Shown: positions 2,165 through 57,700 of the stretch, piece after piece | How positions within the stretch are numbered: the stretch's first letter is position 1 | Layout of the letters: each line of letters begins with the position of its first letter | From: Octopus vulgaris | Taxonomy: Eukaryota | DNA length: 64,000 nt | Assembly: GCA_951406725.2 (NCBI GenBank) | Contig: CATOCA020000001.1 | Location: forward strand, 9,114,001 to 9,178,000 | Reading direction: 5' to 3' | Made by a program: the position numbers and the translations under genes | The notes under the pieces: model-generated | The model's database searches: none | Seen by the model: only the letters and a program-made list of their open reading frames with translations | What the model was told of the DNA's origin: nothing

Positions 2165-2206
2165 CAGCAGGTTTATTTGAAGCGTTAATGTAAGTACCAT
2201 CCGTGC
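2165..2206 (-). CDS. IgSF receptor cytoplasmic micro-exon (42 nt, phase 1-1), GTDGTYINASNKPA
   Basis: ttttttcatttcttaaag|GC ACG GAT GGT ACT TAC ATT AAC ... CCT GCT G|gtaagt; paralogous to 11502-11543 and 16800-16841. Confidence 0.65.
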
Positions 2207-2435
2207 CTTTAAGAAATGAAAAAAAAGAACAAATAGCATGGCTATAAATAATATTTAAATTAAGATAGCTGTGTAATGATTCTACCATAATAAATACTAA
2301 TGAGATAGACTCAAACACACTCACACATACATACATGCATATTAAAACACATATTTCGTAATAGTTAGCTGTCTGTTTATTTTAAAAATAGGTTCTAAGA
2401 TCATGCTGTGTACTAACAATATTGATTGCACTTAT

Positions 2436-2495
2436 GTGGTTGTTTCATTTCTAAATATTTGGGCTCGCTAACCTCAGCACATTGTTCTTCCACAG
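2436..2495 (-). pseudogene. Dead copy of the 60-nt tail micro-exon (VEEQCAEVSEPKYLEMKQP)
   Basis: Homologous to 17062-17121 but acceptor AG>TG and donor GT>AT. Confidence 0.6.
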
Positions 2496-3169
2496 CATCA
2501 AGAAATAAAATGAAAGGCATATTTATTGTTTGGAGAGGATGATTTAAATATGTTGATGATACACAGAATGTAGCAGTTATATATATATATATATATATAT
2601 ATATAGTAGAATAAGAAATAGAAAGCCATTGGTACAGTATTATATATTTGAAAATCTGAATAGAAATGGCGTTTTTGATAATTTTTCCACTTTAATAATT
2701 AAATGTCTGCGATCTAGTTAGTTTCATTCACAAAATCAGCCCCCTTTAATTTTGCTCAGCTTGTTATCAATTCTGGTGTATTGATACTGTTCTGAATTTT
2801 GATTATGCTCAACTAATTACTTTATCTCATAAATTAAAGAATCTGATGTTATTTGGAATTAAAGTTGGGAAAATCTGATCAATTTTAGCCAATCAACAGA
2901 CAGTGAGGCATTAGCAGCTAGTTACCATGACAACCACACATTCTGCTGATTCTTACACAACGAGATTCATTTCATCCACATATTTTGGTTGTGTATATCA
3001 CTGTTTCTTTTTTTTATTTTCTGGAAGATTTATATCTATCAATTAGAATTTTATTGTAAATGTTTTTCGTCAATTTTTTTAATATTTTACTTATTCTTTT
3101 ATATATTTTTCATATATATTTTACATATATTTCATGAAGTTTTTCTGTTTTTACTGTTGCTTTGAATAG

Positions 3170-3590
3170 CCACATCCACATTCAAGCCATTTAATTGTAC
3201 CACTCTGAAGGAGATTTTGAAAACAGGTGGATGCAATAAATTAAGTCACTCATAGATGTGCTCCATTCTCTGATGCCCAGACATTCTCTGTCCACTCTCT
3301 CTGTCATTTCTACTGTACTATATGGCTTCTGCTCCTTGCAGCTAGCTGAGCTCACACCACCTCCTCTCAAAAGTTTCCATCCCATTTGCCTCTTCTCTTT
3401 TCATCATTCCTCTTATGTCCAAACCCATCCAGCCCTACCTAAAAGGCCTCATACTTATGGCTATGCTCAGTTTTTCCTCCCCAAAATGGTTTCTCTCAAG
3501 AAATCCTTCCCTGCTCATATCTTTCCCACAAATGTTGGTTTATGAAGGTTCACAAGGCACATCAATGGCCTTAATCATTAACCTCATTCA
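3170..3590 (+). mobile_element. CR1/Jockey/L2-type LINE ORF2 C-terminal relic
   Basis: ORF 3258: YGFCSLQLAELTPPPL...YAQFFLPKMVSLKKSFPAHIFP resembles the C-terminal FFPRTxxLWNxLPxxVFP region of these LINEs. Confidence 0.55.
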
Positions 3591-4199
3591 TCCAGATGGT
3601 CTGTGAAGGACATAGGCAATGTCAAAAAAGATCAAACCAAAACTAGGCTGAAAGATTCTTGCTCAAGGTGTGATGGAGTTGGATTGAACTCAATACTAAC
3701 ATGTCAGGATTATGATGTGAACTTATTAATCACCTGGTCGTGTACCCCTCCCACAGACCTGTCAGAGATGTAGATGCAAAACTGTGCACGTGGTGGGCAA
3801 GTAATATAATTGGTAGGTTTGGATCCAGCTGAGGTAGAAATAATAAACCCCATGGAACTGAAGCTGGCAGAATGAACCAGAATCAAATTATTTCCTAAAT
3901 GATACGGAAGGAAAAAAGGGCACAGAATTGAGGGGTGGGATGTGAAAGACAGAAATTGTGAGGAAATTTTCCAATGTATGAAACATAAAAAGATTAGAAA
4001 CAAAATGAAGGAAACCTGCCCACCTCACTTTTCTTTTTCCATGAGGTACGGAACTTTGAAGGACAGTTGTTCCAAAAATTATGTCCAGGATGGAGTGCCA
4101 GACTAAATGCTTTGTTCTATTTAGTTCTGTTCCTCTGCATTCTGAGTTCAAATCTCACACAAGTCAGCTTTAACTTTAATCCAACAGGTATCAATAAAA

Positions 4200-54506: not shown

Positions 54507-56699
54507 CTTCTATCAGTAAGAAGGGAAATAAATTTTGCTGGGTAACAACTCCTAAAAGAATATGCTGAGTATCTACAGCTGGCAACTGATCTTGACGGAA
54601 TCTTGAGTAATCATATGTTTGTAGATTATATATGTGTATAAGAAGTTATTTTGCATTTAATTTAAGCATGCCTAAAGATGTGATTAATGTGTATTCTTCT
54701 CTGACATTATTGAAGTTGCATTTCCTTTCACAGCAGAAATGATTATGATGCTGCTGTCATTAGGACAATTTGTGATGACATTCATTTCTTCTTAAAATAT
54801 GTTTTGGTTTAAAATGTTTGCCTTGCTCAGTAAATTTTTGTCTTTCCAGGTTAGCTCATATTTTCCAGTTTTTTTAACAAACATTTTGCTGAAAATAATG
54901 ATTTCTAGGTAGGAGATGTAATCAAAAGTTTTATTGAAAACTTAGCTTCTCTAATTTCAAAATTCAGTGAGCTACCTTCAGTTAAGGATAATAAATGAGT
55001 TAGGTTGGGTACATCATTAGCTTTGAGACATCTTCTATGTGAACTGCATTAGTCTATTCAAATTCAAAATGAGATAATGCTTCAGTGGCATTGAATATAA
55101 AATCAAAATTTTTAGGTTTTGAATTGTGTTTTGACAAATTTTGAGTTCAAATGTCTTATTTATCAAGTTTCTATCCTAGGGAGAGATATTTCAATTAAAT
55201 AGGTCTCTGTAAAACAAATTTGACACCTATCTATCCATTAATAGTGGATAAGGATACTGAAATATTACAGGAGAAATTAAATGTGCCTACTTAAAACCTA
55301 GTAAAAAGGATATCAATATTTAGAAATTGGGCAGTTGTAGATGTTTACAGAATACACCATTTGAAGTAGGGTGGTTGTAGAGAGCAAAATATGGACTTCA
55401 GAGACCAGAAAAATTACAAACACCCATATTCATTTAAACTGGAGAAACTGATGTGATGTTTGGTCACAATAAATCCCTTAGTAAAATCAAGGATCAACAA
55501 ACCCAAATTATCTTTCAGTTCTTTTGTTCATATTTACAGGTCATGCTCTTAATCTGAGGGAGTTCTTTTGAAGCTCAACAACAATATTGCACAGAATGGA
55601 TCATCATCATCATCATCATCATTTAACGTCCGCTTTCCATGCTAGCATGGGTTGGACGGTTCAACTGGGGTCTGGGGAGCCCGAAAGCTGCACCAGTCCA
55701 GTCAGATCTGGCTATTCTTAAAGTAAATAGAGTGAATACAGCAGGGTCAGTGTTAGAATAATGATTTTTTTAGAGATCAGTCAACAAAAATTATTTGCAG
55801 ACATTATCTTTCACAAACTCTCCAAGACTGGTAAGACTGATACAGCCTATGTTCAGTTGTACACATCAATATCTACAGGCAAGTCATAGGTGGGAAGGGA
55901 ATTTCACATTGTTCAACTCTAAGAAGGTTTGATTATGCATAGTGGTCAATGAAATACAGTATTGACGAGAAGAATGGGAGAGATAGATGTATTGGGTGAA
56001 CTTGGATGGAGGTTGTTTAAAGCTAGGAGCAGTGATCGGAGTAATAATAATAAAAGAAGCAGAGAGAAGAGAAGCACATGTACGGGCGAAGGATGGTATG
56101 TGTAACTGAATCATTATCAATTAGGGGGCTTTCACTGAGAAAATCTGTCCTGGGTGTAAGAGCAGTAATTCTTTGTGGATCTTACTTGAATTTTATAGAA
56201 AATCAGTAATTGCTCAAAAGCTGAAATATTTTCTACTTCTGAAGCGAAAAGGTAGTCTTTAGGATACTGTTTCAGTTAGGTTATGTGGGTTTTCAGGATA
56301 TATTACCAGAAATTGTGAAACCTACCTTTTATAGTGACTACGACCTTAATATTAATCAGTTTTGTCCTCTTCAGTTCCACACAAGCTGACTTTAGTTTTC
56401 CTTACTCTTAACTGATGAAGTAGTATTGATTTCATGACTACACTCCTTCCTTAAATAATAAACCGCTTTACTGATCAAAAAGACTGAATTCCATTGCAGA
56501 ATGATTGGTGATAGGAAGGGCATTCAGCTGTAAAACCTATCACAACCCCCTAGCATAAAACAAATCATATACACCAGAGAGAGATGATGTAAGGAATATC
56601 AGATGATGATGGACTATGACAAGTGGCAAGGGCTGAGGTGGAACAAATCCTTCTAACTCATGCCAGCATGGAAAAATAGGCATAAGACAATGATAATAA

Positions 56700-57020
56700 T
56701 GATGATGATCATCATCATAGTTTAACGTCCACTTTCCATGCTGGCATGCATTGGACGGTTCGACTGAGGACTGGCAAGCCAGAAGGCTGCACCAGGTTCC
56801 AATCTGATCTGGCATGGTTTCTACAGCTCGATGCCTTTCCTAATGCCAACCACTCTGAGACTGTAGTGGGTGCTTTTTATGTGCCACCAGTATGAGGGCC
56901 AGTCAGGCGATACTGGTATCGACCACCTCGATTGATGCTTTTTATGTGTCGCTGGCACAGGAGCCAGCACTGGCAATGACCATGCTCCAGTGGTGGTTTT
57001 TACATGCCATCGACACAGGG
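56700..57020 (-). mobile_element. RTE 3'UTR fragment
   Basis: Same terminus family as 8395 and 14553. Confidence 0.8.
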
Positions 57021-57354
57021 TTGCTTAAAGATGGTAAGAATATGACAAATCCATGCGTGTCGCTCACAAGTGAAGATGACTCACAAGTGAAGATGATTTT
57101 AGACACTTATGCAATCACAAGGAGACATAAATGCCCTCTCAGTGTACCCACTCTTGACCCAGTAGATCATCAAGGAGGTGTTGCTTGAAGAGAGAGAGGG
57201 CTGCACCAGCACTTAGCTGGTAGTCATTTTCAGCTGAGTAGACTAGAGCAATGTGAAGTGATGTGCTTTGCTCAAGGACACAATATGCCACTCAATCTGA
57301 GAATTTATACAAAGAAGTAAAAGACATTTGATGATGGTGAGGATATTAGTGATA

Positions 57355-57428
57355 TAGTAGTAGTAGTAGTAGTAGTAGTAGTAGTAGTAGTAGTAGTAGT
57401 AGTAGTAGGAGGAGGAGGAGGAGGAGGA
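57355..57428. repeat. (TAG)n(GAG)n microsatellite
   Basis: Explains the poly-S/poly-Y read-through of ORF 57243..57671. Confidence 0.95.
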
Positions 57429-57451
57429 ACAAATATTTATATTTAACATAC

Positions 57452-57700
57452 ATTTCAACAGGATATTAATTTCCTTTCTGGCTGTCAAATTTCCATTCCT
57501 TTCGCTCTTTGCAATGACAGTGCAGGAAACACGACTGATATTTTTACGATTAAAAGTTAATATAGAATTTGAAAGGAACGTTCGATTTTCATCCTCCAAC
57601 CACACTTCTGGGGTAGGGTTTCCTTTTGCATTACAGTCTATAATGGATGCTTGATTCTCAAATAATGTCACATTCTCTGGTGCAGTAATATCAGGTGGAT
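57452..57700 (-). CDS. Ig-domain exon (249 nt, phase 1-1)
   Basis: ttaattttatag|AT CCA CCT GAT...TTG AAA T|gtatgt; PPDITAPENVTLFENQASIIDCNAKGNPTPEVW...SCTVIAK; joins the next exon as Y-PP. Confidence 0.88.

Follow-up and report, generated by a model that had tools for sequence, protein, structure and literature searches.

Alteration of tyrosine motifs by the splicing of cytoplasmic-tail exons is already known from PECAM-1, Dscam and FcoR. PECAM-1 (CD31) has eight alternatively spliced cytoplasmic exons, and loss of exon 14 abolishes its SHP-2 binding (PMC5664058). Crustacean Dscam is described as having seven tail exons that can be skipped, whereby tyrosine motifs are gained or dropped (PMC6851185). 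The Botryllus FcoR and Hydractinia Alr proteins are described as lineage-specific, clustered immunoglobulin (Ig)-transmembrane (TM) receptors that carry tyrosine motifs, vary in copy number and are accompanied by pseudogene fragments (PMC12582321; bioRxiv 10.1101/2022.03.04.482883), and two FcoR genes are reported to exchange motifs by splicing (PMC12582321). The adaptors LAT, NTAL and LAX carry many YxN sites in a disordered tail, LAX pairing YVNV with YXXM, and YXN and YXXM are given as ligand motifs of Grb2 and p85, respectively (PMC3342071). Here we analysed a 64,000-nucleotide stretch of the Octopus vulgaris genome (the window, C31:9114001-9178000 of a 2.8-Gb genome; positions below follow window numbering unless a contig is named), in which an earlier note had proposed a large Ig receptor with a tail of tyrosine-motif micro-exons. 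We consider it likely that the window holds a partial, probably non-functional duplicate from a family of kinase-less Ig receptors with predicted SH2-docking cassette tails, which are likely alternatively spliced.

The family, whose main cluster lies on contig C5, resembles PECAM-1 (PMC5664058) in combining several Ig domains and a single TM segment with no kinase; gene models of O. bimaculoides suggest that it may also drop tyrosine motifs via short tail exons. PECAM-1 is described as one gene with six Ig domains, two inhibitory motifs of the immunoreceptor tyrosine-based kind (ITIMs) and non-repeated tail exons, whereas the octopus family is a cluster of genes in which Ig exons number as many as eight and tandem tail exons, rich in YxN and YxxM, as many as ~20. 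Dscam is likewise described with FN3 repeats and hypervariable ectodomain exon arrays; the octopus family, by contrast, has its duplicated array inside the cell, behind an ectodomain that does not vary among isoform models. The ectodomains reported for FcoR and Alr are different again (Sushi and FN3-like), and FcoR tails are described as having one to four motifs, based on ITIMs and activation motifs of the immunoreceptor tyrosine-based kind (ITAMs).

The window copy and its losses

All eight exons named in the earlier note were confirmed at their places on the minus strand, with lengths divisible by three, phase 1-1 boundaries and AG acceptors, although the claim of GT donors throughout fails at the middle Ig exon, which has a GC donor. 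In the eight-Ig layout of the family, the three Ig exons are the sixth (57452-57700, minus strand, 249 nt, phase 1-1), the seventh (51930-52181, minus strand, 252 nt, phase 1-1, with the GC donor) and the membrane-proximal eighth (47608-47916, minus strand, 309 nt). The last is an I-set domain above the curated Pfam cut-off (E 1.3e-11), and the other two give sub-cut-off Ig_3 matches. The Ig8 exon is protein-identical in four copies on C28 and C31 and has seven paralogs on C5. Two further Ig exons lie upstream of the window, at 78842-79090 and 82923-83177.

The five tail exons, all on the minus strand, comprise a 42-nt exon of YxxI type (TEDNYATIPDEAL, 20246-20287), a 60-nt exon with two tyrosines (NEEQYAEASGPSYLELKPA, 17062-17121) and three 42-nt YxN exons (MKISYVNVSRKPD, 16800-16841; TDGTYVNASNKPA, 11502-11543; TDGTYINASNKPA, 2165-2206), the last of which is the final exon retained in the window copy. 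A filter for open 36-66-nt exons with a tyrosine and a GTAAGT donor, defined post hoc with these exons already known, returned five on the minus strand and none on the plus strand, as against a mean of 0.09 and a maximum of 2 in 100 Markov resamples. Three damaged minus-strand exons had been missed: a degenerate 60-nt exon at 11780-11839, with its acceptor lost, its first Tyr changed to Cys and its donor intact; a degenerate 60-nt exon at 2436-2495, with both splice sites lost; and a 17-nt juxtamembrane linker micro-exon of phase 2-1 with a dead donor (34660-34676). Nor are the tail exons independent of one another. Self-comparison revealed that the last ones in the window form tandem units of a 60-nt exon, a 220-240-nt intron and a 42-nt exon, which are 72-89% identical, introns included; the second and third of them have a degenerate 60-nt member. 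The exon at 11780-11839 has an in-frame AG 9 nt inside and could yield a 51-nt exon. As a side observation, 60-nt exons with a lost acceptor and an in-frame AG a few bases inside occur both at window 11830 and at C5:27868571, and such a rescued inner acceptor is apparently used in O. sinensis and O. bimaculoides models (P0014, P0016).

Family proteins place the TM segment directly after Ig8, and it is here that the window copy is broken. A C28 copy, 99.5% identical, is collinear with the window up to 39740, ~130 bp before its own TM exon; at the deletion junction (39727-39740) the window has lost 10.8 kb relative to that copy, with the TM exon and a 19-nt exon in the missing stretch, and an inverted duplication follows (35807-39727; arms 35807-37520 and 38004-39727, 98.7% identical). 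This duplication surrounds an inserted element (37028-38494) with ~490-bp inverted arms, and the membrane anchor was probably lost via rearrangement at this inverted-repeat element. The 39727/39740 junction recurs in a second C31 copy. Searches with the family TM exon, by tblastn and at the DNA level, found no TM exon in 264 kb of C31, and the same DNA search matched nine of 14 other regions examined. The 47608-20287 interval contains 20 open phase 1-1 candidate exons, five of them hydrophobic, and these five trace to two sites, at each of which the peptide is translated microsatellite sequence and the splice sites are weak. In the annotated model P0002, Ig8 runs directly into the tail and no hydrophobic segment is present (KD19 0.52). 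Searches for the linker peptide as a single exon were negative because it is split over 19 and 17 nt; the 17-nt exon is intact in four C5 genes, and its donor is dead in the window and in the three other C28/C31 copies checked.

The copy is also truncated at both ends. No signal or Ig1-3 exon was found in the 120 kb upstream of it, and collinearity with the C5 gene stops at window 98856; genome-wide, matches to these exons fall on C5 only (11/11 for Ig1, 9/9 for Ig2 and 5/5 for Ig3 plus signal, all counts being lower bounds). At the 3' end, C5 collinearity ends at 31-84, ~70 bp before the next tail exon, a truncation point shared with the C28 copy. All three breaks lie within gap-free sequence, the sole assembly gap in the 264 kb being at window 112955. 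The window copy lacks the TM, signal/Ig1-3 and 3' exons and is therefore not the large receptor described before; it is likely non-functional.

Fragments with differing breaks, 99.2-99.8% identical to one another, occur at C28:8.0 and 10.7 Mb and at C31:2.86, 6.65 and 6.82 Mb. Across five Ig exons the window shows 87-92% amino-acid identity to the C5 gene, with collinear tail exons, and the copies of the window lineage vary in tail exon content through DNA deletion. We also observed that the C28 copies (C28:8024473 and C28:10712896) have a TM exon and keep the 19-nt exon but have lost a working 17-nt partner and the 5' exons; inclusion of the 19-nt exon would therefore put their tail out of frame. 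C31:9034001-9100000 and 2.86-2.88 Mb contain multi-kb repeated units and a tandemly duplicated tail-only fragment, and C31 seems to be pieced together from recent segmental duplicates. In a sequencing-run search with the Ig8 exon, no RNA run was listed as containing the exon; 20 of the 24 rows, in nine studies, matched at least half of the words, and for six of these RNA was no more than a guess. This search is uninformative on expression of the window locus because the exon is common to four copies.

The C5 family, its tail cassettes and their probable splicing

The earlier note had envisaged a cephalopod Ig receptor that lacks a kinase and has tail exons built as tyrosine cassettes; such receptors do exist, as a cluster at C5:27.4-29.4 Mb. 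This paralog cluster comprises orphan pieces and seven genes, each with exons for Ig1, Ig2, Ig8 and TM. In the family layout a signal peptide is followed by as many as eight Ig-type exons bearing ~25-30 sequons (an ectodomain of ~770 residues), then by a TM helix that lacks charged residues and by a disordered tail. An AlphaFold model, used together with Foldseek for layout only, was of low confidence (predicted local distance difference test (pLDDT) 53.5, predicted TM-score (pTM) 0.29), with a tail of pLDDT ~24 and no secondary structure. Foldseek returned generic multi-Ig matches only, at 9-15% identity. Among the sequences of solved structures, P0011 alone gave no match, and a family profile gave 67 generic Ig matches (CEA, Robo, Dscam).

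Assignment to a described family failed in each case considered. Pfam scans of 13 sequences (7 + 3 family proteins, full or partial, and three window exons) found no kinase domain of any family, which excludes a receptor tyrosine kinase, and no FN3 match, which speaks against membership of Dscam or of nephrin/SYG-2. The likeness to Siglec, PECAM and LAT that had been suggested may hold for a PECAM-like spliced tail and holds for a LAT/LAX-like motif mix, but membership failed for all three. Siglecs begin with a V-set domain in which a conserved arginine binds sialic acid; the 12 N-terminal domains aligned here keep two Cys and two Trp columns and no Arg at 70% or more, and domain 1 has no Pfam V-set match. 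PECAM-1 membership was rejected on the eight Ig-type exons, on strict ITIMs in only four of 81 tail exons and on the absence of PECAM-1 among the 60 of 67 PDB matches listed. As in LAT-type adaptors, multiple YxN sites stand in a disordered tail (29/81 exons), but LAT-type adaptors have almost no ectodomain, and the family has ~770 residues of Ig ectodomain. An ITAM receptor was likewise rejected, the motif (YxxL/I-x6-8-YxxL/I), counted only inside single exons, being present in none of the 81.

A census of the tail called 110 exons, of which 88 were intact (52 of 42 nt, 26 of 60, four of 63, four of 51 and two of 39). It was limited to ~0.77 of 2 Mb, the g8 end and most of 28.24-28.72 Mb lying outside, and counts one doubtful 'intact' exon in g3 that was excluded from the 60-nt selection test below. 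The seven genes have 8, 11, 16, 17, 8, 15 and 6 intact tail exons; among these 81 are 29 with YxN, 20 with YxxM, 51 with Yxx[ILV] and four with a strict ITIM, and an acidic residue precedes the Tyr in 70. The YxN and YxxI/L motifs named before are thus present, and YxxM had been overlooked. Frame neutrality stands for the 42- and 60-nt tail exons, whose symmetry is partly by construction since 'intact' required a multiple of three; it does not extend to every tail exon, the first two being the 19+17-nt pair, which preserves frame only when both are used. On sequence comparison the tail is expanded by tandem duplication of a unit of 60-nt exon, short intron and 42-nt exon, and units have been gained, lost and inactivated by splice-site mutation. 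Because the tail exons are tandem duplicates, their common phase was inherited from few ancestral exons and not reinvented. Separately, paralog P0008 (C5:29.35-29.38 Mb) has expanded a different, 51-nt cassette (LYAKVNK-type) and ends in YAEL/YADL as does the Argonauta protein, which suggests that these terminal motifs may represent an ancestral, possibly inhibitory, tail.

Selection was tested on the intact 42-nt (36) and 60-nt (24) exons of the seven genes. In the 42-nt class the Tyr is retained in 32 of the 36 exons and the Asn at +2 in 31. The +2 Asn codon has seven synonymous versus two replacement changes (P ~1e-4 to 6e-4, uncorrected for 13 codons), and by these counts purifying selection acts on the YxN motif's +2 Asn. 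Its conservation in a tail on the cytoplasmic side agrees with pYxN recognition of the Grb2 type (PMC3342071). On the ligand side, the Ig exons of the window lineage differ from their C5 sister by 49 replacement and seven synonymous changes (pN/pS 1.79), which hints at diversifying selection.

Splicing was examined through a retrocopy and through gene models. At C15:67915761-67916966, part of Ig4 and then Ig5, Ig6, Ig7, Ig8 and TM, 92-99% identical to family exons, are joined without introns, and the copy ends after the TM exon. This shows that the Ig4-to-TM junctions, those of the Ig6, Ig7 and Ig8 exons and the GC donor included, were used in a real transcript. The retrocopy itself has frameshifts and an Ig7 deletion, its best-matching parent shifts exon by exon, and it is flanked on both sides by repeat pieces matching the inverted arms at window 37028-38494. 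For the tail, we turned to O. bimaculoides gene models, which we take to derive from RNA-seq. The models of LOC106869178 are identical in ectodomain and TM (14/14 comparisons) and have 15 distinct tails; those of LOC106874069 are identical there in 7/7 comparisons and have eight distinct tails. The two model sets comprise 15/16 and 15/17 cluster members, and the second count leaves out seven N-terminally shorter models. Almost all of the tail differences concern whole 14- or 20-residue cassettes or the last exon. These annotated isoforms agree with the earlier suggestion of alternative splicing by cassette, and it is likely that cassettes are spliced in and out.

Competing explanations

Several observations weigh against the interpretation of the window as a likely dead fragment of a family with spliced, SH2-docking tails. 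The retrocopy reaches no tail exon, and both TM-to-tail linkage and cassette skipping are drawn from automated gene models, in which near-identical exons can mimic skipping. The Tyr codon has three synonymous and four replacement changes (P 0.15-0.24, not significant), and Tyr is present in 79 of 88 intact and in 20 of 22 broken tail exons, with no enrichment of Tyr loss among the broken ones. Overall the tail exons appear weakly constrained, with most positions near-neutral: replacement versus synonymous changes number 102 versus 25 in the 42-nt class and 97 versus 13 in the 60-nt class, and changes per site in the 42-nt class are 3.7 at codon positions 1-2, 3.5 at position 3 and 4.6-5.4 in introns. 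In the window copy itself, neither stop nor frameshift interrupts the ten retained exons, although its introns have diverged by 3.4% from C5; neutral drift since the split would predict ~1 stop and ~4 indels in these exons (the indel figure being inflated by microsatellites). Because the retained exons are free of such lesions, the loss of function in the window copy is recent or incomplete, and the window lineage was probably functional until recently.

Near-neutral change at most codons of both classes also suits a different account of the tail, in which unequal crossing-over copies frame-neutral exons like a mutational accordion, skipping is noise and some YxN/YxxM sites suffice whatever their combination. 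The 22 broken exons among 110 and the differences in tail exon content by DNA deletion among window-lineage copies point the same way, and the window may equally be a broken copy under this account. It is less easily reconciled with the constrained +2 Asn, with canonical splice sites in 88/110 exons, with the unique, non-repeated cassettes among those skipped in the models, or with the O. bimaculoides model P0102, which holds orthologous cassettes with the same motifs. We regard it as unlikely, though far from negligible. It is improbable that the C28/C31 fragments belong to an intact eighth cluster gene or to a divergent allele, having been misplaced or left uncollapsed in the assembly, so that a complete receptor exists. 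Such an artefact could account for their high mutual identity (99.2-99.8%), their intact open reading frames (ORFs), the orphan signal, Ig1 and tail pieces at C5:28.3-28.65 Mb and the weak grouping (81/87) of window Ig8 with O. sinensis LOC115212249 rather than the nearest C5 gene, in a tree with one of 13 branches well supported. Yet the breaks lie inside gap-free sequence and differ from copy to copy, the TM-less junction is found in two C31 copies, the dead 17-nt donor is common to all four copies checked, and no eighth close Ig2 exon was found in a count that is a lower bound.

Two further possibilities would leave the window locus itself a working gene. Its exons are stop-free, and the join from Ig8 (phase 1) to the first tail exon, as drawn in the automated model P0002, keeps frame, so the copy might be expressed as a TM-less, signal-less cytosolic protein of Ig domains plus tail that acts as an SH2 decoy. 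No promoter-side exon of the family, signal peptide or terminal exon is left, however, and folding in the cytosol is not to be expected of disulfide-bonded, sequon-rich Ig domains. Dscam forms that lack the tail or the TM are described in crustaceans (PMC6851185), although those reported are without the tail, and we consider a decoy very improbable. Still harder to credit, to the point of being barely worth entertaining, is an intact locus whose TM exon, unseen or unrelated, would lie between 47608 and 20287. Its Ig and tail exons do keep their order and are intact, and a cnidarian Alr gene once deemed a partial duplicate is reported to have proved complete (bioRxiv 10.1101/2022.03.04.482883); against this, the hydrophobic candidates are the microsatellite translations with weak splice sites, and the orthologous TM exon is demonstrably deleted.

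Relatives, neighbouring sequences and a possible role

Relatives were found in O. sinensis, O. bimaculoides, Argonauta (GAB1598814.1, 43%) and Sepia (CAE1168733.1, 30%). The Argonauta and Sepia proteins share the Ig-TM layout and have tails with several tyrosine motifs; the Sepia tail has its own ~21-residue Tyr repeat, and the Argonauta tail is short and hardly repeated, with ITIM-like motifs at its end. Outside cephalopods, the identified matches (10 of 129 looked up) were generic Ig proteins, and distant bivalve matches labelled nephrin-like reached ~28% identity. A second small group in O. vulgaris, at C5:98.63-98.76 Mb, is 33-34% identical to the Ig2 domain, and P0076 repeats that domain.

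The window also contains mobile elements. Inverted repeats with long (AT)n tracts at 20832-23226 flank a 461-aa ORF (21317-22702, minus strand), which by eye resembles a Penelope-type reverse transcriptase plus GIY-YIG and has no Pfam match. Fragments of Mariner/Tc1 transposase (Transposase_1, DDE_3) and GIY-YIG lie at 61434-61967, 51145-51408, 25038-25337, 13336-13734 and 61026-61370, and fragments resembling long interspersed nuclear elements at 8807-9889 and 40444-43814.

For the family, we propose that ligand binding would cluster the receptor and that a Src/Csk/Syk-type kinase would phosphorylate the acidic-flanked tyrosines. From motif matches we predict that YxN would then recruit Grb2-family adaptors, YxxM the p85 subunit of PI3K, and YxxI/V/L SHP2/Csk-type SH2 proteins. 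Exon skipping and DNA copy number would set the number and kind of docking sites, and would tune the site mix because each cassette keeps frame. By analogy with FcoR and Alr, the role may be in immunity or self-recognition. We put forward only tentatively, and as a doubtful extension, that the family is a fast-evolving recognition cluster, immune or self/non-self, whose tail array is read by regulated combinatorial splicing to place a cell-type-specific Grb2/PI3K/phosphatase mix behind one ectodomain. We did not find a description of the family in the literature or under six gene ids, although tables of genome papers may list the genes, and an invertebrate Ig superfamily review (PMC11999971) contains neither 'octopus' nor 'cephalopod'.

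The window locus is thus a warning, being a fragment, and the C5 genes are the proper target. They provide a concrete candidate receptor family, called 'uncharacterized' in databases, in the poorly defined field of cephalopod immunity and self-recognition. With a tail made largely of up to ~20 tandem one-motif exons, across a gene cluster, they make exon copy number testable as a tuner of signalling. If regulated combinatorial splicing of this tail proves true, the logic of Dscam would have been shifted to the signalling tail.

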